Part shown: one piece after another, positions 1-56,891 of the stretch
How the letters are laid out: every line of letters starts with the position of its first letter
How positions within the stretch are numbered: the first letter of the stretch is position 1
Origin: an uncultured Bacteroidota bacterium
GTDB lineage: Bacteria; Bacteroidota; Rhodothermia; Rhodothermales; Salinibacteraceae
Direction: 5' to 3'
Assembly (NCBI GenBank): GCA_937127285.1
Contig: CAKZLV010000055.1
Span: 159-64,158, forward strand
DNA: 64,000 bases
Made by a program: the position numbers and the translations under genes
Notes under the pieces: model-generated
Told to the model about the DNA's origin: nothing
Database searches by the model: none
The model's input: only the letters and a program-made list of their open reading frames with translations

Positions 1-219
1 GCGGCAGACGCGCGGGCGAGGAAGGCTGACGCCCCCTCAGGCTGACGCCCTCTCCTCTCTTGTCCGAAGAGTCCGGGCCCGGAGAGAGAGTCCGGGGAGA
101 GTCCGGAGAGGGCCCGGAGACCGAAGGGCTGTCGTCCGGGAGCCTGTCGGCCGGGGCTATCGTAGGGGGCTATCATCCAGGGAAACGCCTTGCCCAGGGC
201 GAGAGCGTCAAGCGGTTGC

Positions 220-1071
220 TCAGCCGTCGTACGTCTGCACGCGACCGAAGAGATCGTGCGTCCCCCAGATGCCGCTGCGCAGGCACTCGAGCTGGACGAT
301 CTGGCTGTGGTCGACGAAGAGGTTTACATCCGGGCCGTAGTTCTGGACGTACCAGCTGAAGACGTGCGGGTCGGCCGCTTCGAACATGAGGTTCTCTTGG
401 CCGAGCTCGTCGATCATCTGCGCCGGGATCTCCGTCCGCATCTCCGGGACGTTCTCGGTGATGCCCTCACTCTCGATCATCACTTCGTGGACGCCTGCCT
501 CGAGGAAGCGCCGCGCCTGCGCGATGGCCTGGGCCGGATCCTGCTGGCCGATCTGCTCCAGCTCTTCGGTCGTCGTCGCCCCGCCGCCGGCTCCGAACTG
601 GATCCCGACCTCCGGCTTCGCCTTCAGGCCCGCCTCCTGAACGGTATCGATCAGGCGGAGCCAGTCCTCCGTCGGTAGCGTGATGAAGCCGGCCGAGATC
701 TCGACGACGTCGAACCCCAGACGGGCGCACTCGTCGACATACTGCTTCACGGCATCCTCGCCCTGTGTCAAGACGTACTCCATGAAGCCGCCGGTCGAGA
801 CCAGCACGTCGTGGTCGTGCGCGAGGTCGAGGAGCGATTGCACCGCTTCTTCCGGCATGAGACTGAACGATCCGCCGGCGAACTTCAGCCCGTCGACGTA
901 GTGGCCCATCGTCGACAGGACGTCCTCCAGGTAGTTCGGGCCCATGACGGAGTAGTACGGACCGCGGATTTCCGTCCGCCCGGTGTCGCGCGGCTTCTCG
1001 CCGCGGTCGTTCAGATCCAGAAACTGAAAGGCGCGGCGGGGGTCGCCTGTGTTGGGGGTCGGTTCGGTCAT
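220..1071 (-). CDS. comA: Phosphosulfolactate synthase (ComA family, PF02679-like)
   Basis: The ORF 220..1167 was trimmed to the ATG at 1071 (MTEPTPN...). It shows end-to-end resemblance to (2R)-phospho-3-sulfolactate synthase: LKFAGGS, GFDVVEISAG, ESEGI, and LMFEA...VNLF near the C-terminus. Confidence 0.8.
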   Translation of the reverse strand: MTEPTPNTGDPRRAFQFLDLNDRGEKPRDTGRTEIRGPYYSVMGPNYLEDVLSTMGHYVDGLKFAGGSFSLMPEEAVQSLLDLAHDHDVLVSTGGFMEYVLTQGEDAVKQYVDECARLGFDVVEISAGFITLPTEDWLRLIDTVQEAGLKAKPEVGIQFGAGGGATTTEELEQIGQQDPAQAIAQARRFLEAGVHEVMIESEGITENVPEMRTEIPAQMIDELGQENLMFEAADPHVFSWYVQNYGPDVNLFVDHSQIVQLECLRSGIWGTHDLFGRVQTYDG

Positions 1072-1170
1072 CGGGGAAGCGAGTCGTTGTTCGCAGATAA
1101 GCGAAGAGGATCGAATGCACCGGTCGCAACCGGCCGCTCGGGGAAGGTCGTGAGTGCCCTCCCGCACGGC

Positions 1171-2532
1171 CTACCGTTCGACCGCAGCAAGGAGATCGGT
1201 CAGTTCGTGAACCGGGAGCGTCTCGAGTTCATCGACCGCGTCGACCATGTCGGACCGCAGCGCCGCATCGGTGTGGGGCTCGGCGAGGCGAGAAAACTTC
1301 TCCGCCACCGTGTCCCACGCCATCGGGTTGGTGTGGAAGCCCTCGAAATCCTCGCGGTGCGTGCCGTACACGGTGTCGCCCACGTGGATGCGGACGTCGC
1401 ACGGCATCTTATCGGGAAAGGCCGCGCTGTAGTCCTCGTTCTCGCGAATCTCGACTTTCTGCAAGAGGCTCTGCACGTCGTCCGCCGCAATCCGGTCGGA
1501 GGCGTACTGTGCAGGAAGCACCTGGTCGTCCAGCAGCGCGACGGCCGTCATGTACGGCAGGCTGTGGTCGGCCTCTTCCTTCTCGCGAACGACGGTCTTG
1601 TCGCCCTCTTCCCCGCCGCCGATGATGTGATAGGCGACGTCGAAGGTATCGATCTCGATCCGGTCGATGGCGTGAGGGTCGATGCCCTCCTCCCGCTTGA
1701 TGGCGAGGGCGGCCTCGAGGGTCGACTGCGAGTGAAACTCGGCGTTGTACTTCTTGATGCTCGTACGGGTCACGCGCTCGAGGTCCTCGGCCGACCAGTC
1801 CAGGTCGAACTCACCGGCGATCGAGTGCATGTAGCCCTTGTTGCCCTCGAACACCTCGGGCGGACCCGTGATGCCGCGCCGGGCGAGAAAGGTGGAGTGC
1901 GTGGCCGTGAAGCCGGTCTCCGGATACGCCAGTCCCTTCCAGTTGGAAAGAGCACCGGTGCGCGTGACGCGCAGGGCGTTGTGCGCCGTGCCGCTAATCG
2001 CCACCGCATTGGCCGTCTGCTCCGGCGAAAGATCGAGGGCCTTGCTTGCCCCGGCCGCAGCGGCGTACTGCCCCTCCACGGTGTGGTCGAAGCCGTGATC
2101 GCGCACCGGCGCCTCGTCGCTGAGGCGGCACTGCACCTGGTACGCAACCGCCAGCGCCTCGAGGAGCGCCCGGCCATCTGCATCCGCGTATTCGGCCGTC
2201 GCCAGTACCGTCCCCAGGTTGTCGCTCGGGTGACACGTCTCTCCTTCCGCCAGGTAGCTGTCGTTGAAGTCGAGGTACCGGACGAGGAAGCTGTTGTAGA
2301 GCGCGGCCCGATCGGGAGAAGCGCCGCCGCCTCCGATCAGCGTTGCCGGGCCGTCGCCGTCGAACTCGTCGACGTGAGCGCGCACGCGGCGAACCGGCTC
2401 AGCATCCATCGCACCGATCGCGCACCCGAGCGAGTCGAGCACCCGGGCCTTGAGCTGCGCCTCGGCCTCGGCGGAGAGATCCGCGTAGGAGGCCTCGCTG
2501 ACAAATTCCGCCAGGTCGTGGACGAGAGCCAT
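1171..2532 (-). CDS. MmgE/PrpD family protein (2-methylcitrate dehydratase-like)
   Basis: This 453-aa ORF has the typical PrpD-family N-terminus (FVSEASYADLSAEA...KARVLDSLGCAIGA) and conserved blocks (HPSDN, FDHT, GTAHNALRVTR). Substrate specificity cannot be inferred. Confidence 0.85.
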   Translation of the reverse strand: MALVHDLAEFVSEASYADLSAEAEAQLKARVLDSLGCAIGAMDAEPVRRVRAHVDEFDGDGPATLIGGGGASPDRAALYNSFLVRYLDFNDSYLAEGETCHPSDNLGTVLATAEYADADGRALLEALAVAYQVQCRLSDEAPVRDHGFDHTVEGQYAAAAGASKALDLSPEQTANAVAISGTAHNALRVTRTGALSNWKGLAYPETGFTATHSTFLARRGITGPPEVFEGNKGYMHSIAGEFDLDWSAEDLERVTRTSIKKYNAEFHSQSTLEAALAIKREEGIDPHAIDRIEIDTFDVAYHIIGGGEEGDKTVVREKEEADHSLPYMTAVALLDDQVLPAQYASDRIAADDVQSLLQKVEIRENEDYSAAFPDKMPCDVRIHVGDTVYGTHREDFEGFHTNPMAWDTVAEKFSRLAEPHTDAALRSDMVDAVDELETLPVHELTDLLAAVER

Positions 2533-2555
2533 AAAACAGTCAAGCGGTTATTCGA

Positions 2556-2613
2556 AAGTCGGTTGGTGGAAGGTCGGTTGGTGAAGCGCTGGTTGGTGGA
2601 AGGTCGGTTGGTC
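2556..2613. repeat. Degenerate tandem repeat, 4 copies of a ~14-16 nt unit (AAGGTCGGTTGGTG)
   Basis: Read directly from the sequence, in the spacer upstream of the PrpD-like gene. Confidence 0.8.
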
Positions 2614-2981
2614 GGAGAGGGGTCGATCGCCGCACGTCGCTCGCGGCAGGATGCTCGCAGGAAGAGCGATCGAGAAACCGTCGCCCGGAAGAGACCCCGC
2701 AGCCGCAACCGGACCGCCTCGCCCCGCCGGCAGACCATGGGGGACGGCGGACGGTGCGGTCGCGTTCGTTGACGACGCCCCTCGTCCAATGCCACCCGAA
2801 GGTCTGCCGTCCTGCTGTTTTTCGTAACCGGCTTTTCTGCAGGTGGGTTGCCTCATTAAAGACAACGTTGCATTTTATCCGCCCAGGCGTGTCTCCGCAC
2901 CGGCGCGTGTCAAAACGGCCGGGTGCGGGGGGCGCGGCCGGGTGCGGGGGCAAGCGCGGGGCGTTGGGTCGGCGGAGCGGT

Positions 2982-3752
2982 CTACGCCGAGAGTTGACGC
3001 CGCACCTGAGGGCTGAGGCCTTCTGCCAGAAAGCGGTAGAGGCGGTTTTTCGTCTTCCGGAGTCGCCGGTATGCCTGCTTCAGATTCAGGATGAGCGTGA
3101 TGCGGCGGTGCAGGCAGTCCATTTCTCCCATCTCGTGCGTCGCCACCGGCCGGAAGCCAAGCACGCGCGTGTGGAAGTTGTAGGGGCTGTGCTCTTCCCC
3201 CTCGAACACGTCGGTGACGTAATGCGAGTAGCCGCGCTCGAGCGTATCCACCCCGGCCATGCGCATCAACCAGAAGACCACTCGGATGCGGTGCCGGTAC
3301 GCCGGCAGCACGGCAAAGCGCCCGATCTCCGCGATGTCGTTGTCACGGATGAACGCATCGACGCCAGCGCCGCCGAAGGACGGCGAGCCATCGGAATGAC
3401 CGTCTCCGGAATGACCGTCTCCGGAATGACCGTCTCCACCGAGGGATTCGAGTCCGTACTCCTGATACCGGTGCAGCGGAGGGGCGTAGTGGATGCGGAC
3501 GACGCCGGCCGGTTCGTCATCCACGGTGGCGACGATCCAGGTCACGGCGTCGTCGCTCAGGTCGCCGGCCGGAAACACGTCGCGGGCCGAGTCCACCCAC
3601 TGTTTTTCTTGCGCATAGGTTGTGGACAGGACGGTATGCGCCAGGTCTCGGTGGTGGCTGGTGGTGGCGCGAAACGCGGTCGTATCGGAACGGAGCATCG
3701 GCTCGGGAAGGAGAGGTCCGAAAGGCAGCGAGACGGGACGGCAAAGCAACAC
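2982..3752 (-). CDS. GNAT-type N-acyl amino acid synthase-like protein (OlsB/GlsB/FeeM-like)
   Basis: The 256-aa ORF has an alternative ATG at 3698 (MLRSDTT). The acyl-CoA N-acyltransferase-like core (AEIGRFAVLPAYR) resembles lyso-aminolipid synthases. It lies 15 nt downstream of a PlsC-like gene on the same strand and contains an in-frame (GDGHS)x3 insert. Confidence 0.6.
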   Translation of the reverse strand: MLLCRPVSLPFGPLLPEPMLRSDTTAFRATTSHHRDLAHTVLSTTYAQEKQWVDSARDVFPAGDLSDDAVTWIVATVDDEPAGVVRIHYAPPLHRYQEYGLESLGGDGHSGDGHSGDGHSDGSPSFGGAGVDAFIRDNDIAEIGRFAVLPAYRHRIRVVFWLMRMAGVDTLERGYSHYVTDVFEGEEHSPYNFHTRVLGFRPVATHEMGEMDCLHRRITLILNLKQAYRRLRKTKNRLYRFLAEGLSPQVRRQLSA

Positions 3753-3766
3753 GGCGGGGCGGCGCG

Positions 3767-4537
3767 CTACGAGGCAAAAGCGGGGGCGGGACGCACCCGG
3801 TCCGCCTCCCAGGTCGTACCCGAAAGGCGGGCGATGGACTGCATGAGGCAGCGGTGCAGGGTCTTCACGTCGTCGTGGGCCTGCGGTGCGATGGGCTCGC
3901 CCACGTGAACCGACAACGGCTCCCGGTCGGAGATCGGCGCACCGGGGTCGGTGTGATCCGGGAAGCGGATGCCGATGGGCAGGACGGGGGTGCGGGACTC
4001 ATGAGCGAGCCGGGCCGCCCCGCGGCGTCCGCGCAGCAGGCGGGTCGGGTCGCGGTGGGTGGTTCCCTCCACGAAGATCCCTACGGGTCTTCCGTCGTCG
4101 AGGCAGCGACGGGCGAGCGGATAGCCGTTGGGCGACGGGGCCAGCACCGTCCGTAGCGGCGTGAGGAAGCGCGGCCGCGCCGGCTTGGTGGCCACCGGAA
4201 TCACGCGAGCACAGCGGTACAAGAGGTAGACCGGCGGCAGCAGCATGAAATTCCAGTCGGCCAGAAACCGGATGATGCGACCACCGCGCAGCCAGGCGAG
4301 AAGCGCCGGAACCAGAAAAGCTTCCGTTCGCTGGCTATGGTTCAGCGCGGCGACGAACGGACCGTCAAGGCTCCGGAGTCGGTCGGCGCCCTCGACCGAG
4401 CGCACGCGGTGGCCGAGCGCCCAGACGGTTGCCCGAATAACCCATCGGGTGGACCGGCGGTCAGGTGGGTGCCGATACGAAGCCGTGAGGACGGAAGACA
4501 GATCCACGCGGGGGCGTCCAGTCGGTGACCGGGACAT
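3767..4537 (-). CDS. Lysophospholipid / 1-acyl-sn-glycerol-3-phosphate acyltransferase family protein (PlsC/OlsA-like)
   Basis: It has the acyltransferase motifs NHSQRTE (the NHxxxxD/E block), FVEGTT (the FPEGTR block) and VLPIGIRF. Confidence 0.7.
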   Translation of the reverse strand: MSRSPTGRPRVDLSSVLTASYRHPPDRRSTRWVIRATVWALGHRVRSVEGADRLRSLDGPFVAALNHSQRTEAFLVPALLAWLRGGRIIRFLADWNFMLLPPVYLLYRCARVIPVATKPARPRFLTPLRTVLAPSPNGYPLARRCLDDGRPVGIFVEGTTHRDPTRLLRGRRGAARLAHESRTPVLPIGIRFPDHTDPGAPISDREPLSVHVGEPIAPQAHDDVKTLHRCLMQSIARLSGTTWEADRVRPAPAFAS

Positions 4538-4739
4538 GCACCTCTGTAAATAGACGACACTTCTCCGGAAACCATTATCCGAACCGTTACCCCATCATTT
4601 TAAAACCGTTATCCAACCGTAAGCATGAGTTTACGTCGTCGGGCGCGCGCATTCGTACGCTGTCGGTGAACGGTTGACGGGCCGCCCCTGGCCGCGCCCT
4701 TCCGCCCCTTCCTCTTCTGCCGACGGCTCCCTCGCCTGC

Positions 4740-5378
4740 ATGGACCTTCCGACGATTCTCGACTGGGTGACGGACTACGCCGTGCTCATCGTGTTTGCAT
4801 GGCTGGCCCTCGAAAACACCTTGTTCCTCGGGTTTATCGCCCCGGGCCTGACGGTGCTGGTCGTCGTCGGTCTTCTCATTCAGACGGGGGATGTCCGGCC
4901 CGTCCCCGTTCTCCTGGCCGCGCTGGCTGGCACGTATCTGGGAGACAACGTGAACTATCTCGTCGGGAGGTGGGGGTTGCGACGATTTGGGTGGATCCGC
5001 CGGATTCTGGACGACAACGACGACGCCCGCCGCTTTATCGACCGCTACCCACGCGTTATCTACATCTTCTTTCACTTTCCCGTCTACCTGCGCACCGCGT
5101 TTCCGCTGACGCTGGGATCGATGCGCTACCCGTTTCGCACCTGGCTGTGGATCGACCTCGCAGCCGCTCCCCTCTTCGTAGCCGCCTTCACCGGCCTGGG
5201 GTACGGGCTGGCCCGGTACGTCCTGCAGGTTAACGACCTGGTGACGGCCGTCCGGGAGGTTGCCCGCACGGGCAACGGGATCATTCTCGTGTTCTCTCTT
5301 CTGTTTGCCTACGGAACGCTCAAGTTCGTCCGCCTCCTGTGGCGAAGCGCTCGCCGGGAGCCGGATTCGCGGCAGTAG
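4740..5378 (+). CDS. DedA/SNARE-associated family membrane protein
   Basis: The ORF was trimmed to MDLPTILDW. It has multiple hydrophobic helices and a DedA-like LENTLFLGFIAPG...YLGDNVNYLVGRW block. Confidence 0.8.
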   Translation: MDLPTILDWVTDYAVLIVFAWLALENTLFLGFIAPGLTVLVVVGLLIQTGDVRPVPVLLAALAGTYLGDNVNYLVGRWGLRRFGWIRRILDDNDDARRFIDRYPRVIYIFFHFPVYLRTAFPLTLGSMRYPFRTWLWIDLAAAPLFVAAFTGLGYGLARYVLQVNDLVTAVREVARTGNGIILVFSLLFAYGTLKFVRLLWRSARREPDSRQ

Positions 5379-5420
5379 CCCCACCGCCTGCCTGCCCCCC
5401 CCGGCGGCGCCCGCCCGCAC

Positions 5421-5483
5421 ACGCCCTTCCCGAGACGCCCTTCCCGAGACGCCCTTCCCGAGACGCCCTTCCCGAGACGCCCC
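5421..5483. repeat. Tandem repeat, 14-nt unit ACGCCCTTCCCGAG x4.5
   Basis: Four perfect copies lie at 5421-5476 with a partial fifth. The array is intergenic, between the DedA gene and the response regulator. Confidence 0.95.
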
Positions 5484-5704
5484 AACGGGCCGGGGGCTGT
5501 GGAGAGCGTCATTTCAACCGCTCTCCACGACGAACACAGCAAAATTTGGCCGCCGCCCCGGATCACGCTGCGGCGTTGCAGGTTACGCTGTTGTCACAAT
5601 CGAATGTACCAAGTTCGGTGTGCATCTCCTACATAGTAACGAACCTGTTTTCTAATCGTCACAGGTCGCTTCGCTCCGCTCTCACGACGCCCCCGTACCG
5701 ATAT

Positions 5705-6424
5705 ATGAATCCCTCCCGAAATCATTCGACGGAGACGCAAAACGCGCGGATCCTGATCGTAGAGGACGACCCGGAGGTCGGTGATGGACTGGAGGATTTC
5801 TTTTCGATCAAGGGATACAGCGTCTCGCGCGCTGCCGACGGCGAAACGGCCCTGCAGGAAATCACCACCTTGCCGCCGTACGACGTCGTTCTGCTCGACG
5901 TGGTGCTTCCCGAAAAGGACGGCTTCGAGATCCTGCGGGAGGCGCGAAAGGCGGGCGTCGACTCGCCTGTGATTATCCTGACCGTAAAGGGACAGGACAA
6001 GCACAAGCTGCGCGGCTTCGACCTGGGGGCCGACGACTACGTCACGAAGCCGTTCAACGCCGAGGAGCTGGCCGCTCGCGTCCGGGCGGTCCTGAAGCGC
6101 AGCCGCGACGAGGACGATGACGGCAACACATACTCCTTCGGCGACATTACCGTCGACTTTACGAGTCACACCGCCGAGAAAACCGGGGACGACGTCGAGT
6201 TCACCACCCTCGAGTTCGACATCCTGGAGTATTTTATCAACCACCGAGGCCGCACGGTAAGCCGCAAGCAACTCCTGCGAGACGTGTGGGGCATCAGCGG
6301 CGACATCACCACGCGCACGATCGACCGCCACGTCGCCAGCCTCCGCAAGAAGATCGAGACCGATCCCACCGACCCCGAATACATCGAAACCGTGTACGGG
6401 ATCGGGTACAAGTTTACGGGGTGA
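5705..6424 (+). CDS. OmpR/PhoB-family two-component response regulator
   Basis: The receiver domain shows ILIVEDD...VLLDVVLPEKDG...TVKG. The winged-helix output domain shows LTTLEFDILEYF, RTIDRHVASLRKKIE and IETVYGIGYKF. Confidence 0.9.
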   Translation: MNPSRNHSTETQNARILIVEDDPEVGDGLEDFFSIKGYSVSRAADGETALQEITTLPPYDVVLLDVVLPEKDGFEILREARKAGVDSPVIILTVKGQDKHKLRGFDLGADDYVTKPFNAEELAARVRAVLKRSRDEDDDGNTYSFGDITVDFTSHTAEKTGDDVEFTTLEFDILEYFINHRGRTVSRKQLLRDVWGISGDITTRTIDRHVASLRKKIETDPTDPEYIETVYGIGYKFTG

Positions 6425-6581
6425 GGAATGTGGGGGCTGGGGAGGCTTGGGGGCTTTGGACGCTGCGGACGCTTGGGACTCCATTTCTCAATGATCATTG
6501 AGCATTGAACATTGAGCATTGGGCGTGGATCAACGCTCCCCCAACTCTCAACCCTCAACCCTCAACCCACAACTCATCCCC

Positions 6582-8000
6582 ATGCCCACCGTCCAACGCG
6601 GCGACGTCGTCGAGCTGCAAGTTGAGAAGTTTGCCGACGAAGGGAAAAGCCTCGCCCGCGTCGACGGATACGTCGTCTTTGTCGACGGCGCCGTGCCGGG
6701 CGACCGCATCCAGGCGTACATTCACCGCACCAAGAGCAACTACGCCGAGGCCAAACTCGATACCCTCCTCGAACCGAGCGATCTCCGCACGGAACCCCGC
6801 TGCCGCTACGCCGACGAATGCGGCGGCTGCAAGTGGCAGCACGTGCGCTACGACGCGCAGCTCGACAAGAAGCAGCAGAGCGTCGCCGAGGCCTTTCGCC
6901 ACCACAGTGACTTCGAGGAGGTGGACGTGCGGCCGACGATCGGATCCGACCGGCCGCCGTTCTACTACCGCAACAAAATGGATTTCGATTTCAGCGCCGA
7001 CCGGTGGCTGACGCGCGCGGAAATCGACAGCGGGAAGGACTTCGATACCGACTTCGCGCTCGGCCTGCACGTCCCGGGCAATTTCTTCAAGGTGCTCGAC
7101 CTGCAGGAATGCCACCTGCAGTCGGAACTCTCCGCCCGGATCGTGAACGCGACGCGCGACTTCGCGAAGGAGCGCGGCTGGAAGGCGTGGGACATCCGCA
7201 ACCACCACGGCTTCCTCCGCCACCTCGTCATCCGGGAGGGCAAGAAGACCGGGGACGTGATGGTGAACCTCGTCACGAACGGCTACGATGACGCCCGCCT
7301 CGAGGCCTACGGCGCGTTTCTGAAAGCGGAATTTCCGGAGGTCACCACCTACGTCCACACCAACCACACCGGCAAGAGCCAAAACCCCGAAGGCGAGGAG
7401 ACGGTCCTCTTCGGGCCGGGCGTGATCGAGGACGAGATCGGCGACTACCGCTTCGAGATCAGCCCGAGCGCGTTCTTTCAGACGAACACCCTGCAGGCCG
7501 AACGGCTCTACGAGGTGGCCCGCGACTTCGCCGACTTCCAGCCCTCTGATCGCCTCTACGACCTCTACTGCGGCGCCGGCACGATCTCTCTCTTCATGAG
7601 CGGGTACGTGGACGAGGTCGTCGGCGTCGAAATGGTCGAACCCGCCGTCGAGAACGCCCGCGCGAACGCGAAGAAAAACGGGGTCGACAACGCGACGTTC
7701 GTGGCCGGAGACCTCAAGGACGTGTTCACCCCCGCCTTTGTGGAGGCGCACGGCGAACCGGACGTCCTGATCGTGGACCCGCCCCGCGCCGGAATGCACA
7801 AGGACGTCGTCGGACAAATCGCCGACCTGTCGCCGGAGCGCTTCGTCTATGTGAGCTGCAACCCGCAGACGCAGGTCCGCGACCTCGACCGTCTCAACAC
7901 CCTCACCAGCGGCGGCTACCGCATCGACGCCGTCCAGCCCGTCGACATGTTTCCCCACACCCCCCATGTCGAAAACGTCGTGCGCCTCACACGGGTGTAA
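6582..8000 (+). CDS. rlmD: 23S rRNA (uracil-5-)-methyltransferase, RlmD/RumA type
   Basis: It has an N-terminal TRAM domain, the Fe-S cysteines CRYADECGGCKWQH, and a SAM methyltransferase core (DLYCGAGT, VDPPRAG, YVSCNP). Confidence 0.85.
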   Translation: MPTVQRGDVVELQVEKFADEGKSLARVDGYVVFVDGAVPGDRIQAYIHRTKSNYAEAKLDTLLEPSDLRTEPRCRYADECGGCKWQHVRYDAQLDKKQQSVAEAFRHHSDFEEVDVRPTIGSDRPPFYYRNKMDFDFSADRWLTRAEIDSGKDFDTDFALGLHVPGNFFKVLDLQECHLQSELSARIVNATRDFAKERGWKAWDIRNHHGFLRHLVIREGKKTGDVMVNLVTNGYDDARLEAYGAFLKAEFPEVTTYVHTNHTGKSQNPEGEETVLFGPGVIEDEIGDYRFEISPSAFFQTNTLQAERLYEVARDFADFQPSDRLYDLYCGAGTISLFMSGYVDEVVGVEMVEPAVENARANAKKNGVDNATFVAGDLKDVFTPAFVEAHGEPDVLIVDPPRAGMHKDVVGQIADLSPERFVYVSCNPQTQVRDLDRLNTLTSGGYRIDAVQPVDMFPHTPHVENVVRLTRV

Positions 8001-13105: not shown

Positions 13106-13112
13106 TTCCACC

Positions 13113-13176: not shown

Positions 13177-13177
13177 C

Positions 13178-49994: not shown

Positions 49995-50122
49995 GGGGTC
50001 GGGGAGAGAAAAGGCGAGGCGGCGCGATCGTCGGGCCGCCGGGGCGTAGGAAGGCTGGATTGAGCGTGAGGGGCTCGGGGTGAGGAGTTATAGGCGGGAG
50101 GAGCGGGGAAGTAGGGACGGAG

Positions 50123-50986: not shown

Positions 50987-51253
50987 AAGACGCAGGGGGA
51001 CGCAGGGAAAGCGGCGAGAAGGAGAATCGGCACGGGCGGAGGCCGACCGGTGCACGCAGGAGTCGGCCGGCAGATCCGAACACGAACTCCGAGAAGGAGA
51101 TCCGGGCTCCGGCGACGGCGTGCGGTGCAGGCAGCGACCGGGCGGGGACGTGCATCACGAGGAGGCCGATCGGAGGGAGCCAGGTCGGAGGGAGCCGAGC
51201 CGAAAGGCGGGGGGTGAGCCGGGGTTGTGGTCCGCGGGTCGTGGTCCGCGGCG

Positions 51254-54200
51254 TCAGAGCGGCAGGGTCACCTCGAAGGTCGTCCCGTCCCCGTCACGGC
51301 TGTCGACATCGATGGATCCGTCGTAGACCTCCACGGCTCGCTTCACGATTGTCATGCCGAGGCCGGAGCCGTCGGCCCCGCCGACGTTGCCGGCGCGGAA
51401 GAAGGCACGGAAGAGATGCTCCTGGTCGCTCTCCGGAATGCCGATCCCCTCGTCGGCCACGCGAAGCTTCAGGGTGTGGTTTTCCATCTTCCACCGGACG
51501 CGGACGGGGGTGTCGTCGGGAGAGTACTTCAGGGCATTGGACAGCAGGTTGGACAGGATGTGGTGGAGGAGATCGGGGTCGACAGCGATCTCGTCCGGCA
51601 GCCCGATCGTGTCGACCTCGACGGTTCGGTCTACCCCCAGGTGGGCGCAGACCTCGTCGGTAACCTCTCGCTGAAAGCGGTGAGGGTCGACGGGGGCGGG
51701 GGTCGGGGTGTCGTGCTCGGCGTCGAGCTTGCTCGTGGTGATCACGTCGCCGAGCAGGCGCGACATGCGATCGATCTGGCGGTGGATGCGGTCGACGTAC
51801 TTCTTTCGTTTCTCGGGCGACCACTGCTCGAAAAACTCTCCCATCATTTCGGCCGAGGACCGGATCGTGGAGAGCGGCGTCCGGAACTCGTGCGACACCA
51901 TGCTGACGACGCTCGACTTCAGCCGGTTCAGTTCGCGCTCGCGCCGCAGCGCTTCCCGCGTCTGCTGCTCCATGCGCTTGCGCTCGGTGATGTCGTGAAG
52001 CGTCCCCACGATTCCGGACGTGTGCCCGTCGGCCGGTCCGTCCTCCTCGTGCCCCTCCTGGAGCGTCTGGGCAAAGAGCGCCATCCACCGCACCGACCCA
52101 TCTCGCGTTCGCAGCTTCACCTCGCTCCGGCACGAGGACTGCTCTCCACGAAAGACGCCGCACATCTCTTCCAGCTCCGGCCCTTCAAAGTACGCCAGGC
52201 TCGGGTTGCCCGTCGTCTCTTCCACCGGATATCCCGTGAGCGCTTCCCATGCCGGGTTGAGAAAGCTCCAGTGGCCGTCCGCATCGATCTGAAAGACCAC
52301 GTCGCGTACGTTCTCGACGACGGACCGGTACTGCGCCTCGCGCTCGCGAAGGGTTTGCTCGGCCTCCTTGCGGATTAGGGCGTTGGCAAACGTGTCGCCC
52401 AGGACGCGGAGCAGCATGATCGTTTCCGACTCCCAGGTGCGGGGCGTCTCGACGGCGTCGAACCCGGCGAAGCCGATCAGCCGGCGCCCGTTCGACATCG
52501 GGACGAGCACGAGCGACTGGACGCTCTGCGCGTGCAGGACGGCCCGAAGCGCCTCCGCCTCCGGCGGAAGGTCGTCCACGTCGGGCACGTGCACGGCGCT
52601 CTCGGTCCGGAGCCGGTCCATCAACCAGGCGAATCGCTCCTGCGGGACGTTTTGGATCTGGTCGCGGTGCGACGTGATGCCGGGGCCGCACCACTCATGC
52701 GTGTTGCTGAGCGTCTCGGCGTCGTTGTCGAACAGGAACACGTAGCTGCGGTCTGCACCGACGAACGGGCCGATCCGGCCGAGGGCTTCTTCGATGCGCC
52801 GATCGGTAATCCCGGCGTCCATGTCGATGAAGCGCGTCGACAGGTCGACGATCAGGTTCTCGAGCAGGACGCGGTACTCGAGTTTGTCCTGCGCCGCCCG
52901 CCAGTCGGTAATGTTGCGCAAGACCGTCTGCGCGGCGCGTTCGCCGTCGTACCGAATGGGAACGGACTGCGACTCGACGATGCGGGTCTCTCCATCCAGG
53001 CGTCGGACCCGGTACTCGAACGGCTCGGTGGCCCGCCCCGCCTCCAGGTCGGCGAGCCGTTCGTCGACCCGGTCTTCGTATCCGTCGGCCACGAAGTCTC
53101 GCACGGATCGGCCGACCAGGTCGCCCGGCGAGTCGGCCCCCAGCAGGTCGGCCCCACTCGGGTTGATGTAGCGAATCCGTCCGCCGACCGAAATCAAGAT
53201 CGGTTCCATGTGCGTTTCCACGAGCCGGCGCCAGCGCTCCTCGCTCTGCCGCAGCGCCTCCTCCTGCGCCTTCTGGGCGGTCACGTCCACGGCGTACCCG
53301 GCATACCGGTCCGGGCCGGTACCCGTCTCCACATGCCCCGCCACCGAGTGCACCCAGCGGATGGATCCGTCCGGCTGCACGACGCGGTACTCCAGCGTGA
53401 GTTCTCCGTCGCTCCACCCGTTGCGCATGGCCTGCACCACGCGGGGGCGGTCTTCGGGATGGATGGAGGACAAGTAGGCCTCCGGATGCTCGTAGAGCTC
53501 TTCGACGGGCCGCCCCCAGATGCGCTCATAGGCCGGGCTGATGTACAGGTACTGTTCTTTCGTGCGCAGCCAGAAGACGCCCTGCACGTTCTCTGTGACT
53601 TGCCGAAGACGCTTCTCGCTTTCTTGAAGGGCCTTTTCCGCCAGCACGCGATCGGTCACATTGCGGGTCGACACAACCAGCGCGCCTCCGTTGCCTGCAG
53701 CTCCCGCCCCTTCGACCGGCGCCGGCAGGTCGGGCCGATCCGCCCCCGCCCACTTCCGGGAGGTCATTTCGACCCAGACGTAGTGCCCGTTCTTGTGCTG
53801 CAGCCGTGCCCGGCGCTTGACGATTTCTCCGTCGAGCGCCCGGTCGATGTTCGTCCAGGTAGGCGGCCGGTCATCCGGGTGCATCAGTTCGATGCAGGGC
53901 CGGCCGACGATCTCCTCCGGCGGGTAGCCGAGCAGCGCCTGAACGGACGGGGTGGCAAACGTGCAGGTTGTGTCGGCCGTGTGGCGGGTGATGACGTCCG
54001 CTACGTTGTTGACGACGTAGCGGCATTCGTTCTCGTTCACGTCTCGCCCGGAGCGATTGGACGCCGGGTCGGCAGCCGCGGCCTCGGCTCCATCTCCTCG
54101 CGAGGGAGCCGGCACGCCGGTGAGCATCAGCAGCCCGTCCGTTCCCTCGATGCGCTCCGCCCGCCAGTATGAGGGAGCGTCGGGGCGGTCTCCCTCGACG

Positions 54201-54547
54201 GGAGGCAGGTGAGCCTCCGCCGCCCCTTTTCTGCAAACCGTTTGCAGAAGATCGTGTACGCGCCCCCGGCGCACCGGGCCGTACACGTCGGTCAGCGTTC
54301 TCGGCTGCGGTTCGTTGCCGGAGGAGCAGTTGTCCCGGTCGTCTGCCTCCCGAGACGGGGTGTGCGGGACCGGGGACGGGGCAGGAGGCGCGGTACGAGA
54401 CGTCGTTCCGATCACCTGCTCCGCAAAGGCGTCGTTCCACCGGTGCAGCGTTCCGTCCAGGTCTGCGATCGCCGCCGGTTTGGCTACCGCGTCGAGGAGC
54501 GCGGTGCTCACTTTTTGCTCCTGGTCGAGGCGTTCGTGAAGGGACAT
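51254..54547 (-). CDS. Multi-PAS/GAF sensor histidine kinase (no receiver domain)
   Basis: The ORF was trimmed to MSLHERLD. It has at least four PAS/PAC modules, one GAF-like module (GADRSYVFLFD), an H-box (SHEFRTPLSTI) and an HATPase_c domain (LSNALKYSP, DEGIGIP, GSGLGM). Confidence 0.9.
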   Translation of the reverse strand: MSLHERLDQEQKVSTALLDAVAKPAAIADLDGTLHRWNDAFAEQVIGTTSRTAPPAPSPVPHTPSREADDRDNCSSGNEPQPRTLTDVYGPVRRGRVHDLLQTVCRKGAAEAHLPPVEGDRPDAPSYWRAERIEGTDGLLMLTGVPAPSRGDGAEAAAADPASNRSGRDVNENECRYVVNNVADVITRHTADTTCTFATPSVQALLGYPPEEIVGRPCIELMHPDDRPPTWTNIDRALDGEIVKRRARLQHKNGHYVWVEMTSRKWAGADRPDLPAPVEGAGAAGNGGALVVSTRNVTDRVLAEKALQESEKRLRQVTENVQGVFWLRTKEQYLYISPAYERIWGRPVEELYEHPEAYLSSIHPEDRPRVVQAMRNGWSDGELTLEYRVVQPDGSIRWVHSVAGHVETGTGPDRYAGYAVDVTAQKAQEEALRQSEERWRRLVETHMEPILISVGGRIRYINPSGADLLGADSPGDLVGRSVRDFVADGYEDRVDERLADLEAGRATEPFEYRVRRLDGETRIVESQSVPIRYDGERAAQTVLRNITDWRAAQDKLEYRVLLENLIVDLSTRFIDMDAGITDRRIEEALGRIGPFVGADRSYVFLFDNDAETLSNTHEWCGPGITSHRDQIQNVPQERFAWLMDRLRTESAVHVPDVDDLPPEAEALRAVLHAQSVQSLVLVPMSNGRRLIGFAGFDAVETPRTWESETIMLLRVLGDTFANALIRKEAEQTLREREAQYRSVVENVRDVVFQIDADGHWSFLNPAWEALTGYPVEETTGNPSLAYFEGPELEEMCGVFRGEQSSCRSEVKLRTRDGSVRWMALFAQTLQEGHEEDGPADGHTSGIVGTLHDITERKRMEQQTREALRRERELNRLKSSVVSMVSHEFRTPLSTIRSSAEMMGEFFEQWSPEKRKKYVDRIHRQIDRMSRLLGDVITTSKLDAEHDTPTPAPVDPHRFQREVTDEVCAHLGVDRTVEVDTIGLPDEIAVDPDLLHHILSNLLSNALKYSPDDTPVRVRWKMENHTLKLRVADEGIGIPESDQEHLFRAFFRAGNVGGADGSGLGMTIVKRAVEVYDGSIDVDSRDGDGTTFEVTLPL

Positions 54548-55098
54548 GGCCGCCGATCGACTGTTCGGGCAGAATCGGGTTCGAGCAGCACCGGGCCTGC
54601 GAGTGGCTGCGGCAGGGATGCCTTTCATCGGGGTGTGCGGTTAGGAAGTCAAAACTCAAGGAACCGGTCGATGCCGTCAGAAGCAATCGAACCGGCCTCC
54701 TGACGCGGCGGCGCGGCGATCTTCCCACCGTTGTAACGTGTGCGGAATTCGAGGTCGCCCCGAGGAACGCGGCTTCTTCCTCGTCTTTCAGATGGATGTT
54801 CTCGAAGAGTGCCGTCGGCGGCATCGGTCTTCGTCGAACGACATCCGACCGATACCATCTCGACCGACCCTTCTCCCCTTCCGGAGGCGTTGCCGGTGTC
54901 CACCGCAGACGCGTTCCGGCAGGCACCCGCAGTTCCGGCAGGCACCCGCGATCCGGGCATGCGCCCACACTGCGTGCGCCACCGCGTGCGCACCTGATCC
55001 GGGTATCCGCTTGATCCGGGTGTCCGCTCGGGCGCAGGCACTCGCGCGCACCGATCCCTCGAAGCCAGCGTTCTGCAGGAACTTCCCGGCCTGTCCCC

Positions 55099-56778
55099 AT
55101 GCCCGACCCTGATTCTTCGTCTGGCCGCCGCGATGCCGACCTGGACTGGTACCGGCGGCAGTGGGAGGAGCTTCAAGACATTTTGTCCGTCGACCGGGCC
55201 GAGGCCGTCACCGGCCGGGTGCGAGAGCTTCGGCTGGACGCGCTGCAGGACCGAGCCGAGGTATGGGCGGAACAGGCCGAGGGCGGCGACGAGGCGGCGC
55301 GCCGCGTGCTCTCCGAGATCCGCGACCACCTGCGCGCGCTCCGCGACCGGTCCGACGCGCTCGATGCCCTCTGCGATGCCCTCGACGCGCCGGATGCCCG
55401 GACGGCGGCACAACGGGTGCAGGCGCTGAAAGAGGAGCGCGACGACCTGCGCGCTGCCCAGCAGTCGTTTCGGCAGGCCGGCTTCGACGACCCCGAGGAT
55501 GCCCTCGAGATGATCCGCACCATGGAGGCGCAGCTCGACCAGCTCTACGGGGAGAAGGAATCGACCCTGAAGTCGGAACGGCGCGCCGAGGAGATCGCCG
55601 AAAAAGGCGGAACGTTTGAACAGCTGGAGGCGCTGCTCGCCCGCGAGGAGAAGCTCCAGCGCGAACTGGGCATCTCGTCTTCCGACGAGATCATTGCCAT
55701 GGTGAACGGCCTCGTCGACCAACTCGAGGACCTGTACGACCGGCAGGGAGCCGCTCGGCCGGAGTCGGTAAACGGAACGAGCGTGGACGCGCCGTTCGAC
55801 CGGCTGGAGGAACTGCTGGACCGGGAGCAGACGCTCCAGGACGAACTCGGTGTGTCGAGCCCGGACGAGGTCGTTGCGATGGTCCGCGGCCTCACCCGGC
55901 AGCTGGAGGATCTGTACACGGCCCGCGAGCGCCTCGCCCGCGTCAACCTCGACGACGCAGATAGCGTCATCGAGATGGTAAACAGCATGAAAGCGCAGCT
56001 GGAGGTGCTGTACGAGGACCAGGAGCGGCTGTCGAACCAGGGAATCGACGGCGTCGACCACGCCCTGTCGATGATCGAAAGCATGGAGGCGCAGCTGACC
56101 GACCTCTACGAGAAACAGCAAACCCACGGGGCGTCCGACGAGAAGCTTCAGCGCCTGCACGAGCAGTTGGAGTCGCTGCGACGGGAAAAAGAAGACCTGC
56201 TCGAGCGGCGCGAAGCGCTCGAGGCGGAAAATGCGTCGTACGCCCAGACGGTCTCCGCCCTGGAAGACACCCTGGGAACCTCCGACCCGGAAACCATCTC
56301 CAGTCTGGTGGACAGCATGGAGAAGCAGCTCGCCGACGTCTACCAGTCGCAGGAGTCGCCGGCCGACCCGGACGCGACGCCGCCTCCGCCGCTCATCGAC
56401 CGGTCGGACCTGGAGGAGATCGATTCTCGCTCGGCCGAAGAGCTGCACGCCCTGCCGGTCGGCGCCTTCTGCCTGGCGGACGACGGAACGGTGCGCCGGG
56501 CGAACCGTGCCGCCCTACAATGGCCGAGTGCAGAGGCCGCCTCCCCCGACGCGCTGACCGGCCGCGACTTTTTCTTCGATCTGGCGCCGGCAACCAACAA
56601 CCCGCCGTTCCGCGGCCGGTTCTCACGGGGGGTGCGCGAGGAAAATCTGGATACTCGCTTCTCGTACACCTACGTTGCACGAGACGTCCCCCTCACCGGC
56701 TTCGTGGTTCAGATGTATCGCACCGGCGACGACGCCAACTGGATTCTGTTCCAGCCGGTGACGGACCGCTCGCCCTGA
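55099..56778 (+). CDS. Repeat-rich coiled-coil protein with a C-terminal PYP-like PAS domain lacking the chromophore cysteine
   Basis: This 559-aa acidic ORF has six copies of a ~24-aa motif ending Q-L-[ED]-x-L-Y. Its C-terminal ~120 aa are clearly paralogous to the adjacent PYP (FRGRF, FSYTY, NWI), but it reads LAPATNN where PYP reads VAPCTNN. Confidence 0.75.
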   Translation: MPDPDSSSGRRDADLDWYRRQWEELQDILSVDRAEAVTGRVRELRLDALQDRAEVWAEQAEGGDEAARRVLSEIRDHLRALRDRSDALDALCDALDAPDARTAAQRVQALKEERDDLRAAQQSFRQAGFDDPEDALEMIRTMEAQLDQLYGEKESTLKSERRAEEIAEKGGTFEQLEALLAREEKLQRELGISSSDEIIAMVNGLVDQLEDLYDRQGAARPESVNGTSVDAPFDRLEELLDREQTLQDELGVSSPDEVVAMVRGLTRQLEDLYTARERLARVNLDDADSVIEMVNSMKAQLEVLYEDQERLSNQGIDGVDHALSMIESMEAQLTDLYEKQQTHGASDEKLQRLHEQLESLRREKEDLLERREALEAENASYAQTVSALEDTLGTSDPETISSLVDSMEKQLADVYQSQESPADPDATPPPPLIDRSDLEEIDSRSAEELHALPVGAFCLADDGTVRRANRAALQWPSAEAASPDALTGRDFFFDLAPATNNPPFRGRFSRGVREENLDTRFSYTYVARDVPLTGFVVQMYRTGDDANWILFQPVTDRSP

Positions 56779-56891
56779 GCCGCTCGCCCTGAGCCGGTGC
56801 CGCCTCGACGCCGGGGCCGTCCGCGGGCCCGCCTCCGGGCCGGCCGACGGCGTCGTGAACCCATCCGCTTTGAAACCGACCCCACACACCG

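Follow-up and report, generated by a model that had tools for sequence, protein, structure and literature searches.

The window analysed here, a stretch of 64,000 nucleotides from the MAG of an uncultured, salt-loving relative of Salinibacter (Salinibacteraceae), carries many short tandem repeats between its genes, and the question it raises is whether these are a peculiarity of one region or a trait of the whole genome, and which process gives rise to them. In the first-pass annotation, 17 repeat sites were listed, their density was considered abnormal, their units were described as preferred in size but mutually unrelated, and local duplication or slippage, or selection for spacer structure, was suggested as the cause. 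As a whole this interpretation stands in part: density, preferred unit and duplication or slippage are upheld by the present results, but the units are not unrelated.

Repeat density in the window, the genome and its relatives

The source genome comprises 3.85 Mb in 370 contigs assembled from short reads and is 88% complete. Tandem repeats were accepted at a TRF score >=50, and genes were called with a crude self-trained caller. All 17 listed sites are genuine, 15 being recovered by TRF within +/-5 nt and with the periods originally given, and 2 by sequence reading (Table 1). At 8567-8614, annotated as four copies of 12 nt, the period holds but only 2.4 copies are clean (8566-8594). According to our own gene calls and those of same-species contigs, every site lies between genes except 56766-56796, which spans a stop codon.

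Table 1. Tandem repeats and related units in the window
Positions	Strand	Feature	Evidence
23-54		16-nt x2 tandem duplication, intergenic	TRF score 57
2554-2612		15-nt x3.9 array, intergenic	TRF score 81
3392-3437		15-nt x3.1 perfect repeat, intragenic, in-frame; copy number varies between strains (15-nt indel)	TRF score 92
5400-5482 (TRF 5421-5482)		14-nt x4.4 perfect array, period 28 as a second reading; polymorphic by 28 nt (2 units)	TRF score 124; indel block ~5414
6431-6479	+	G-rich 8/9-mer family array, GCTTGGGAC type, directly 3' of stop codon of + strand gene	TRF, sequence, polarity statistics
6492-6521		central CATTGAN/CAATGAT heptamer array (TRF 14 x2.1), among the 62 genomic core clusters	TRF, core list
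6538-6573	+	C-rich heptamer array CCCTCAA x5, directly 5' of start codon; polymorphic by 7 nt	TRF, indel 6546
8566-8594		12-nt x2.4 perfect repeat; polymorphic by 12 nt	TRF, indel 8566
8874-9075		40-nt x5.2 array in long spacer downstream of uvrA	TRF score 213, sequence
9105-9233	+	three abutting arrays (17-nt x4.1, 8-nt x3.5, 7/14-nt x5.7), C-rich on + strand and therefore G-rich in the sense of - strand uvrA (ends 9243); 17-mer array polymorphic by 34 nt	TRF; indels at 9122 and 9223 in block
13111-13181	+	CCCACACG octamer x8.9, dispersed-family member; polymorphic by 8 nt	TRF score 93, family list, indel 13124
14421-14501		14-nt x5.8 array GGCATCCTGCTACA; polymorphic by 14 nt	TRF score 106, indel 14447
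15376-15412		17-nt direct repeat, 20-nt period, 3 variable bases between	read from sequence
15442-15474		16-nt x2.1 perfect duplication	TRF score 66
19041-19088	+	G-rich octamer array ACGGGGAA/GCGGGGAG, right 3' of stop of + strand gene 17986-19032	TRF, sequence
19094-19163	+	CAACCCA/CAACACA heptamer x10, G-rich in the sense of - strand gene ending 19169; polymorphic by 7 nt	TRF, indel 19098
26516-26572		GTTGGAC/GTTTGGAC 7/8-mer array	TRF 26516-26553 as 15-nt x2.5, score 69
27394-27430		14-nt x1.9 repeat (TRF 27394-27420), equal to 7-nt x5	TRF
28212-28254	+	CACAACC heptamer x6, just downstream of - strand hrpB-like gene	TRF
44783-44796		single 14-nt unit CCCGTGCGATTTCA, adjoins start codon; three other assemblies have it as a perfect tandem pair, 6-nt microhomology arm	alignment
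45436-45504		15-nt x4.6 array	TRF score 75
48856-48894		15-nt x2.6 repeat	TRF score 71
50065-50078		single 14-nt unit GTGAGGGGCTCGGG; tandem duplicate in every other assembly compared, 6-nt microhomology arm	alignments
51170-51196		12-nt direct repeat, 15-nt period, 3 variable bases between	read from sequence
51222-51251		14-nt x2.1 repeat	TRF
54910-55028		19-nt x2.6 (54910-54956), 12-nt x2 and 17-nt x2.0 (54995-55028) repeats in divergent spacer between kinase and PYP-like genes; 17-mer site polymorphic by 16 nt	TRF; indels at 54983 and 55030 in spacer
56766-56796		14-nt x2.2 perfect duplication, includes stop codon of gene 55099-56778	TRF score 62
57543-57610		13-nt x2.8 and 10-nt x2.5 repeats, both polymorphic by exactly one unit	TRF, indels 57557, 57597

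The pattern of the window extends across the whole genome, which holds 2,136 tandem repeats, or 555/Mb. Their density reaches 2,019/Mb in intergenic as opposed to 131/Mb in coding DNA, with 12.3% and 1.1% of bases, respectively, inside repeats. Dinucleotide shuffling of all intergenic segments yielded 14-19 repeats (~16), compared with 1,652 in the real sequence at the same score. About 40% of all spacers in the MAG carry repeats, and the arrays are short (median 46 nt). These counts are lower bounds, because the MAG is incomplete and 21% of the arrays with dispersed units (family arrays, see below), as compared to 5% of singletons, lie at contig ends.

Thirteen members of the same family or order, each sampled over only 32-80 kb, contain 25-133 repeats/Mb, against 555/Mb in the MAG; per intergenic Mb, with one gene caller, the values are 355 and 2,019, a lineage excess of about 6 times. 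Most of 75 outgroup Bacteroidota loci show 0-130/Mb. For units of 14-16 nt the MAG has 173/Mb, its family relatives ~17/Mb and the outgroup Bacteroidota 9/Mb, and the excess over relatives is about 10-20 times. The abnormal density noticed in the window is thus confirmed against shuffled sequence, coding DNA, relatives and outgroup loci. An association with gene orientation, a subject already raised in the first-pass annotation, is also present: convergent spacers hold 2.99 arrays/kb, tandem spacers 2.09 and divergent spacers 1.44.

Two overlapping populations of arrays

Roughly 54% of intergenic arrays, here called class B, are duplications of unique sequence, flanked by microhomology and with a size mode of 14-16 nt. 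Only 17% of perfect two-copy duplications lack an extra matching base, compared to 50% of simulated random duplications; a microhomology arm of >=1 nt is present in 83%, and one of >=4 nt in 53% (4% in simulation). These proportions match those reported for microhomology-mediated tandem duplications (MTDs) across bacteria in bioRxiv 10.64898/2026.02.28.708716, and class B arrays are typical representatives of such duplications.

The preference for units of 14-16 nt is genuine and no product of the TRF threshold, as is evident from a threshold-free scan in which perfect duplications were counted at every period. Intergenic counts amount to 285, 155 and 139 at periods of 14, 15 and 16 nt, to 63 each at 13 and 17 nt, to 28-49 at 9-12 nt and to at most 16 at 19 nt or more; a second mode lies at 7-8 nt. 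Singleton arrays have a unimodal distribution of periods with the mode at 15. Coding DNA contains multiples of three only, and 15 nt (65) prevails over 12 nt (26) or 18 nt (11), the expected output of one mutational spectrum after a frame filter.

Copy number differs between strains by exact whole units, a comparison that the first-pass annotation had likewise put forward. About 55 kb of the window was aligned with contigs of the same species, up to 10 of them, recovered from other samples, and 14 of the 22 indel blocks are whole-unit gains or losses (7, 7, 8, 10, 12, 12, 13, 14, 14, 14, 15, 16/17, 28 as 2x14, and 34 nt as 2x17). Two of these 14 events are changes between one and two copies of a 14-nt unit.

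Class A, the remaining ~46% of intergenic arrays, consists of a few dispersed families with G/C-skewed units of 7-9 nt, often read as 14/16-nt dimers. Among 1,647 intergenic arrays, 752 have 12-mers in common with other arrays, although the net excess of sharing is smaller than this number because shuffled units give 290. The sharing arrays belong mostly to three superfamilies (402, 112 and 54 arrays) whose sub-units are 7-9 nt long, and diverged dimers of 7- or 8-mers account for 37% of 14-mers and 47% of 16-mers. It is here that the notion of mutually unrelated units fails.

Family arrays obey a strict polarity: their G-rich strand runs 5' to 3' away from the nearest gene; downstream of a stop codon it is the sense strand, upstream of a start codon the antisense strand. 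Of the family arrays located no more than 10 nt past a stop codon, 92% are G-rich in sense; of those at most 10 nt ahead of a start codon, 98% are C-rich in sense; and the rule is identical across the four gene-orientation classes. Where a spacer holds two family arrays, their order is G...C in 98 cases and C...G in 6. Such polarity is not predicted by pure local slippage.

Origin of the arrays

Any explanation has to accommodate the existence and density of the arrays, their size spectrum, microhomology arms, whole-unit polymorphism, families and polarity, and their excess relative to related genomes, all of them observed directly. We propose, as the probable reading, that two overlapping repeat populations are made and kept changing by slippage or MTD formation and then filtered by selection, class A being an STRR-like G-rich class. 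Local duplication or slippage, already favoured in the first-pass annotation, is the best supported process, in view of whole-unit indels, microhomology arms and frame-keeping units within genes, and would be the generating mechanism. A class B duplication would arise in place, between short direct repeats serving as microhomology arms, and the resulting array would afterwards gain and lose whole units. Such arrays would build up where constraint is lowest (convergent, then tandem, then divergent spacers, and far less in coding DNA, where only frame-keeping units, mainly of 15 nt, would persist), a distribution that suggests purifying selection. Slippage alone does not explain the sharp onset at 13-14 nt with few units of 9-12 nt, nor the occurrence of identical units at dozens of loci together with the polarity rule.

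Class A arrays, and perhaps others, could instead be selected elements of transcription-unit boundaries with slippage only the source of variation, which we consider rather unlikely. A polymerase leaving a gene, either beyond its stop codon in sense or beyond its start codon in antisense, would make G-rich RNA on a C-rich template; R-loops or G-quadruplexes would then form more readily, with pausing or termination of transcription, or protection of mRNA 3' ends, as the outcome. The strict polarity relative to the nearest gene end in any gene orientation speaks for this possibility, as do the 126 family arrays lying within 10 nt of a stop codon and the failure to find hairpin-plus-T-run terminators in spacers of window positions 1-20000. 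Potential G-quadruplex (G4) motifs are enriched in spacers (917/Mb, genes 103/Mb; genome-wide 275/Mb in the MAG, 88/Mb in relatives) and ahead of start codons hardly ever lie on the sense strand (17, versus 233 on the antisense strand), and the molar K+ of Salinibacter cytoplasm would stabilise G4 structures. For G-rich heptamers of other bacteria, K+-dependent G4 formation has been shown, and most are transcribed (Rehm et al. 2015, PLoS One, PMC4692102). However, no more than 25% of the family arrays, and 4% of singletons, contain a canonical G4 motif, divergent spacers hold arrays too, copy number and unit sequence are free to vary from strain to strain and from locus to locus, and relatives manage with 6 times fewer arrays. 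Loss or weakness of a repair or replication function (e.g. loss of MutS1, weak flap endonuclease or single-strand exonucleases) would raise the rate of slipped-strand events, but we give this explanation of the excess little credence. With E. coli MutS as tblastn query, the MAG yielded only a MutS2/Smr-type protein (C202, 12203-14692) and no MutS1, an absence that counts for little in a MAG of 88% completeness; C324 carries a MutL-like gene. Dependence of yeast MTD formation on flap endonuclease Rad27 (PMC13167724) also fits. On the other hand, strain SNPs have a Ts/Tv of ~2 (125:62), whereas loss of mismatch repair should leave a strong bias towards transitions, single-base indels number just 2 among the 22, PolA is full-length with all eight acidic 5'-nuclease site residues conserved, and candidate RecJ, ExoVII, RecQ, UvrD, RecG, RecF and RecN are present. 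E. coli MutS is not known to act on loops of 14-16 nt.

More doubtful still is a mobile palindromic element of MITE- or REP/BIME-like type, dispersed among the spacers, in which family arrays would form the G-rich and the C-rich arm on either side of a CATTGATCAATG core. A palindromic CAATG/CATTG heptamer core does form 62 clusters, all intergenic, 59% of them flanked G-rich on the left and C-rich on the right and none of the 62 the opposite way; identical units reappear at dozens of loci, and where a spacer contains two family arrays its folding is somewhat better than that of shuffled sequence (mean z = -1.5; z < -2 in 43%, versus 15% of repeat-free spacers). Yet arms within one spacer are no more complementary than arms across spacers (score 13.9 versus 15.1, p = 0.66), arrays with the same unit have neither conserved flanks nor target duplication, 532 skewed arrays, the majority, have no core nearby, both arms occur in only 98 spacers, and the strains compared never differed by presence or absence of an entire element. 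The slightly better folding and the lack of raised complementarity are also the two observations that bear, weakly, on the suggested selection for spacer structure. Finally, the short-read, fragmented assembly and the crowding of family arrays at contig ends could point to artefacts of metagenome assembly or binning, but such an origin is hardly credible: the arrays fit within a single read, more than 20 different samples assembled independently with MEGAHIT and SPAdes show the same arrays in the same places with whole-unit differences only, and reading frames and gene boundaries are respected.

Relation to known repeat systems

The G-rich heptamers GGGAATC of Xanthomonas and GGGGA(C/T)T of Nostoc have their G-rich strand as the coding strand up to 50 bp past a stop, or as the non-coding strand up to 50 bp ahead of a start; they are under-represented between divergent ORFs, and their length varies between close relatives (PMC4692102). 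Class A arrays reproduce this polarity rule and are likewise skewed tandem units of ~7 nt, over-represented between genes, less frequent between divergent ORFs and variable in copy number; according to the preferred reading they would belong to the same repeat class as these heptamers and cyanobacterial STRR. Instead of one consensus, the MAG possesses many units, such as the pairs AGCCCCCA-CGCTCCCA, GCGTCCAC-AGCCCCCAC, CCACACGC-CCAACCGC and CCGAGTA-CCCAATA, as well as CAACCCA; octamers and 14/16-nt dimers are as frequent as heptamers, the canonical four-tract G4 motif is confined to a quarter of family arrays, and the lineage (Rhodothermota/Bacteroidota) and hypersaline habitat are different. 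STRR are short tandemly repeated repetitive heptamers (cited via Vioque 1997, PMC146911), and direct repeats of the heptamer TAACTGA occur in Beggiatoaceae, cyanobacteria and some Bacteroidetes (MacGregor 2015, PMC4679880). With both, class A shares dispersed intergenic arrays of a recurring heptamer in two to tens of copies near gene ends. TAACTGA repeats are AT-rich, lie mostly just upstream of start codons and differ in unit sequence, and in the MAG several G/C-skewed families occur side by side with unique 14-16-nt duplications, which are the more numerous population.

Bacterial VNTR/MLVA loci also vary between strains by whole units, but they are a handful of loci, while in the MAG ~40% of spacers are affected, with short units (7-19 nt) and similarly short arrays. 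In the MTD survey, the most highly variable TD loci are those of Burkholderia pseudomallei (bioRxiv 10.64898/2026.02.28.708716). Class B resembles MTDs, as these are described in Dan et al. (2021, PNAS, PMC8639346), PNAS 2026 (PMC13167724) and the same preprint, in microhomology-flanked unique duplications, coding depletion, reversible polymorphism between one and two copies within a population and growth to multi-copy repeats. It differs in its 14-16-nt density, exceeding that of relatives as given above, and in its sharp peak at this size, which has no counterpart in the searched passages of the three papers. Both repeat types of this genome are therefore already known, and it is their density and the sharp 14-16-nt unit size that are out of the ordinary.

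Repeat density and unit length in the genome

The window is bases 159-64158 of contig C55. The metagenome-assembled genome (MAG) that holds it (3.85 Mb in 370 contigs, 66% G+C, 87.7% complete, without a 16S gene) comes from an uncultured organism related to Salinibacter at genus level. UvrA identity is 80-86% with Salinibacteraceae relatives ('Salinivenus sp.' and others) and 66-68% with other Rhodothermales. Genes were called with a codon log-odds caller, self-trained on 812 long ORFs. The 2,924 genes obtained cover 78.8% of the genome, and their stop positions match the gene calls carried by same-species public contigs.

The first-pass annotation had listed 17 intergenic sites with tandem repeats of 8-19 nt period, held their density to be abnormal and their unit length to be preferred, and called for comparison with shuffled and coding sequence, between strains and among gene orientations. 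Tandem Repeats Finder (TRF) returns 120 rows for the window and recovers 15 of the 17 sites with the places and periods as listed. The remaining two, 15376-15412 and 51170-51196, are direct repeats of 17 and 12 nt with three variable bases between the copies. The four copies claimed at 8566-8594 are too many, 2.4 being clean. Gene calls confirm that the listed repeats are intergenic, with the exception of 56766-56796, which duplicates a stop codon. A longer array lies in the 738-nt spacer downstream of uvrA: at 8874-9118 a 40-nt unit is repeated 5.2 times (TRF score 213), inverted motifs of the form GGGCATG...CATGCC occur in every unit, and a 34-nt perfect palindrome (9085-9118) follows. Automatic gene callers place spurious ORFs in this region in some assemblies and none in others. 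Features of the window and recurrent repeat units are collected in the table.

Features of the window (positions in the window) and recurrent repeat units
Position	Feature	Context or occurrence
6425-6581	spacer: stop codon, (GCTTGGGAC)n, (CATTGAN)n, (CCCTCAA)n, start codon	sequence read
19033-19168	spacer between two converging genes: (ACGGGGAAGCGGGGAG)n, then (CAACCCA)n	sequence read
55099-61229	photoactive-yellow-protein (PYP) gene cluster	
55099-56778	559-aa protein, weak C-terminal PAS match	PYP cluster
56766-56796	tandem duplication taking in a stop codon	gene calls
56892-57377	161-aa PAS protein, PYP-like in appearance	PYP cluster
~58034-59587	AMP-binding ligase	PYP cluster
59736-61229	aromatic amino-acid ammonia-lyase	PYP cluster
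	representative units (GGGAGCGTGGGGGCTT)n, (TGGGTTG)n, (ACGGGGAAGCGGGGAG)n	this genome
	family unit AGCCCCCA-CGCTCCCA	15-35 loci
	family unit GCGTCCAC-AGCCCCCAC	15-35 loci
	family unit CCACACGC-CCAACCGC	15-35 loci
	family unit CCGAGTA-CCCAATA	15-35 loci
	family unit CCGGTTCC-CCGTCTC	15-35 loci
	arrays GTTCACG-GTTCATA x5; AACGCCCC-AACGAACC x6.4; TGAACCT x8	relatives G005/G014

The ammonia-lyase and the ligase of the PYP cluster would make and activate the p-coumarate chromophore.

The repeat excess is real, strong, genome-wide and amplified in this lineage. At a TRF score of at least 50 the genome contains 2,136 non-overlapping repeats (555/Mb), with 1,647 in intergenic DNA (2,019/Mb) and 398 in coding DNA (131/Mb); with the cut-off lowered to 40, 12.3% of intergenic bases and 1.1% of coding bases lie in repeats. 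When every spacer is dinucleotide-shuffled, 14-19 repeats are found compared with 1,652 real ones, and codon-shuffled genes yield 73 compared with 400. In samples of 32-80 kb from each of thirteen relatives in the same family or order, repeats number 25-133/Mb, and most of 75 loci of other Bacteroidota have 0-130/Mb. With one gene caller used throughout, the relatives are 83.9% coding and carry 355 repeats per intergenic and 43 per coding Mb, beside 78.8%, 2,019 and 131 here. The claim of abnormal density thus stands against shuffles, coding DNA and relatives alike. The gap to the relatives is one of degree, about sixfold per intergenic base, not of kind; a recent survey found prokaryotic intergenic space to be enriched in tandem repeats in general (PMC12418385).

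Since the TRF cut-off could mimic a lower bound near 13 nt, perfect tandem duplications were also counted for all periods (p, in nt) without any score threshold. Intergenic DNA contains 420 of them at p=7 (66 in shuffles), 169 at p=8 (18 in shuffles), 28-49 at each of p=9-12, 63 at p=13, 285 at p=14, 155 at p=15, 139 at p=16, 63 at p=17, 39 at p=18, 10 at p=19 and at most 16 at p of 20 or more. The spectrum is truly bimodal, with modes at 7-8 and 14-16 nt; the preferred length noticed at first pass is therefore no product of the threshold. Inside genes, frame-breaking periods are nearly absent (one case at p=14, two at p=16), and among frame-keeping ones p=15 (65) exceeds p=12 (26) and p=18 (11), as expected if the same mutational spectrum is filtered by selection against frameshifts. 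Duplications with p=14-16 number 173/Mb in this genome, compared with about 17/Mb in relatives of the family and 9/Mb in the outgroup Bacteroidota. In the outgroup (loci L006-L080, 1.3 Mb), where perfect duplications are rare, the peak is again at 14 nt, with 7 of the 19 events at p=10-19. Both comparison sets have a small maximum there, a hint that the preference for this size may be widespread and that this genome only amplifies it.

Two classes of arrays

Clustering of units that share 12-mers, with rotation and both strands allowed, places 752 of the 1,647 intergenic arrays in families (class A). With shuffled units the count is 290, which reduces the net excess, but the initial impression that the units are unrelated to each other does not hold. 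Three superfamilies of 402, 112 and 54 arrays dominate. Family units are composed of sub-units of 7-9 nt, with periods of 7, 8, 14, 16, 21, 24, 28 nt and so on, and 532 of the 752 arrays show strong strand skew (|GC skew| of at least 0.4). Contig ends are no more than 100 nt away from 21% of family arrays, compared with 5% of the others, so class A evidently breaks the assembly and is under-counted. G005 and G014, genomes of the nearest sampled genus (loci L093-L095 and L105-L108), carry a few arrays of 7- and 8-mers in the same style; class A is therefore older than this genus.

Class A follows a polarity rule: read 5' to 3', the G-rich strand points away from whichever gene is nearest. Of 126 family arrays lying no more than 10 nt beyond a stop codon, 92% are G-rich in the sense strand; of 44 lying equally close ahead of a start codon, 98% are C-rich in it. 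The forward strand is G-rich at the left of spacers and C-rich at the right in all four gene-orientation classes, and paired arrays stand in the order G...C in 98 spacers and C...G in only 6. Singleton arrays have little strand bias. A palindromic heptamer core, CAATG/CATTG, forms 62 clusters, all intergenic; 59% of them are flanked by G-rich sequence on the left and C-rich sequence on the right, none the other way round, and divergent spacers hold 5 of the 36 clusters assignable to a spacer class.

The other 895 arrays (class B) are singletons, duplications of unique sequence without half-unit structure. Their periods are unimodal: 85 arrays at 13 nt, 168 at 14, 212 at 15, 115 at 16 and 72 at 17. 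Diverged dimers make up 37% of 14-mers and 47% of 16-mers but only about 5% of 15-mers; these fractions and the singleton peak at 15 exclude that all 14-16-mers are dimers of 7-8-mers. We compared 561 perfect two-copy duplications of 13-18 nt with random duplications made in silico. No further matching base follows the two copies in 17% of real cases (50% simulated), at least four follow in 53% (4% simulated), and the mean microhomology arm measures 4.76 nt, compared with 1.05 nt in the simulation. Such an excess fits slippage between short direct repeats one unit apart, and the arm proportions equal those published for duplications in bacteria, fungi and archaea (bioRxiv 10.64898/2026.02.28.708716).

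Strain variation and the generating process

Contigs of the same species were found by exact-protein look-ups in a saltern-like ENA time series (ERZ2479xxxx); more than 20 samples are represented, assembled with MEGAHIT or SPAdes. Their alignment to the window, over about 55 kb, reveals 22 indel blocks. Fourteen are exact gains or losses of whole units in tandem repeats, with sizes of 7, 7, 8, 10, 12, 12, 13, 14, 14, 14, 15, 16/17, 28 (2x14) and 34 (2x17) nt, and three more fall inside repeats. Both classes are polymorphic, and so are in-frame coding repeats at 3392 and 41830. At 44783 and 50065 a 14-nt unit is single in the window and present as two perfect copies in other assemblies, followed each time by a 6-nt partial copy. 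Independent assemblies from different samples agree on the arrays, which rules out an assembly artefact.

Length variation is also seen in proteins. The PAS/GAF histidine kinase gene at 51254-54547 (reverse strand) has a 48-nt in-frame indel near the N-terminus, at 54337, and is called as 1,097 or 1,113 aa depending on the sample. Past the window end, a hypothetical protein (contig C55 ~65209-65462; 18160-19296 in locus L149) has a different length in each of six same-species assemblies: 323, 338, 350, 360, 361 and 378 aa. The variation has the look of a coding tandem repeat, and C55 ends inside it.

Class B shares with microhomology-mediated tandem duplication its microhomology arms, a reversible change between one and two copies, and depletion in coding DNA (p=15 at 21/Mb, compared with 190/Mb in intergenic DNA, genes holding in effect only multiples of three). 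Together with the whole-unit strain changes, the arms bear out the earlier proposal of local duplication or slippage, and there is good support for slippage and microhomology-mediated duplication as the generating process, with selection acting afterwards. Gene orientation also matters: arrays number 2.99/kb in convergent, 2.09/kb in tandem and 1.44/kb in divergent spacers, and at least one array is present in 36-45% of the spacers of every type. This ranking and the coding depletion follow expected constraint, which speaks for most arrays being tolerated by-products and against their being promoter elements.

Repair genes offer one weak lead to the cause of the excess, the loss of mismatch repair. 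In the MAG, which is 12% incomplete, tblastn did not find MutS1, possibly owing to an assembly gap; the sole MutS homologue recovered is of MutS2/Smr type (C202 12203-14692), and a MutL-like gene lies on C324 (3865-5856). Transitions and transversions among strain SNPs number 125:62, a ratio of about 2, which carries no signature of mismatch-repair loss. A defective flap endonuclease is unlikely judging from the predicted PolA, which is full-length with all eight acidic residues of the 5'-nuclease site conserved. Candidates for RecJ, ExoVII, RecQ, UvrD, RecG, RecF and RecN are present as well.

Known repeat systems and possible function

The class A arrays belong to a known class of polar G-rich repeat arrays. 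Rehm et al. 2015 (PMC4692102) described intergenic repeats of GGGAATC in Xanthomonas and GGGGA(C/T)T in Nostoc. These lie nearest the 5'-neighbouring ORF regardless of its orientation. Their G-rich strand is the coding strand where they follow a stop codon and the non-coding strand where they precede a start codon; they are scarcer than expected between divergent ORFs, and their length differs among close relatives. No function was established for them. Our polarity rule is the same rule, arrived at independently: class A has units of about 7 nt with strong G/C strand skew, conforms to it at 92% and 98% of gene-end arrays, and is likewise commoner in non-coding DNA and rarer between divergent ORFs. 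It differs in that its units do not follow the GGGNATC consensus, form many families, include octamers besides heptamers and contain few canonical G-quadruplex motifs. The heptameric STRRs of cyanobacteria (Vioque 1997, PMC146911) and the TAACTGA repeats of Beggiatoaceae, cyanobacteria and some Bacteroidetes (MacGregor 2015, PMC4679880) are related phenomena. Our literature search for tandem repeats in Salinibacter turned up no paper. Neither class is new in kind, as both ingredients are already known; new, as far as we searched, are their density, the sharp 14-16-nt mode and the occurrence of both classes together in a salt-in halophile.

Several other explanations of the arrays can be weighed. 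The G...C order of paired arrays is real and would suit a spacer-specific hairpin or terminal inverted repeats, and two-array spacers do fold better than mononucleotide shuffles (mean z = -1.5). This folding is explained by generic pairing of a G-rich with a C-rich arm: complementarity is 13.9 for arms of the same spacer and 15.1 for arms of different spacers (p = 0.66), which rules out such an architecture. With arms not mutually complementary and flanks unconserved, the arrays are not palindromic mobile elements of the MITE or REP-BIME kind either, nor copies of a single dispersed element with conserved flanks, the flanks of same-unit arrays being unrelated. Judged by the canonical motif (G3+N1-7 x4), G-quadruplexes are not a general property of the arrays: 25% of the family arrays contain it, and no more than 4% of the singletons. 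CRISPR arrays have identical repeats of 24-48 nt with unique spacers of similar length between them, whereas the units here stand head to tail without such spacers, with periods mostly of 7-19 nt. The simple repeats of phase variation occur only at the promoters or 5' coding ends of a few surface or restriction genes, whose expression they switch on and off, whereas here 36-45% of spacers are affected, the promoterless convergent ones most densely, and frame-breaking units are nearly absent from genes.

It is also conceivable, though we think it improbable, that transcription units in this organism are bounded by the polar G-rich arrays. A polymerase leaving a gene, in sense or antisense direction, would make G-rich RNA off a C-rich template; in a cytoplasm of molar K+ this could produce R-loops or G-quadruplexes and halt transcription. 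The arrays would replace hairpin-plus-U-tract terminators, which this GC-rich genome seems to lack: hairpins with a T-run were not found in the spacers of window positions 1-20000, all 25 consensus matches lying inside genes. The 7-8-nt families and the 14-16-nt mode would then represent one and two steps of a single replisome slippage size, and selection would keep recruiting new boundary arrays from this supply. In an Rfam 15 search of the whole window, one tRNA alone reaches the gathering score, and no family relevant to the repeats does.

The combination is unusual: about 12% of intergenic DNA lies in repeats, about 40% of spacers are affected at some six times the intergenic density of relatives, unit sizes are sharply bimodal, and whole-unit changes account for 14 of 22 indels among co-occurring strains. 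The arrays fragment short-read assemblies of the lineage and can be used directly as strain markers. The species recurs in dense saltern metagenome time series (contig labels 1T000-1T093 and 2T000-2T025), a natural system for measuring rates of birth, growth and death of short tandem repeats and for asking whether the size preference comes from formation or retention. The role of the conserved polarity of G-rich arrays, a question dating from Rehm et al. 2015 and the cyanobacterial STRRs, is approachable here as well. The arrays are no new kind of element, yet they make this lineage unusually well suited, as a natural system, to work on how tandem repeats arise and disappear and on the polarity rule.
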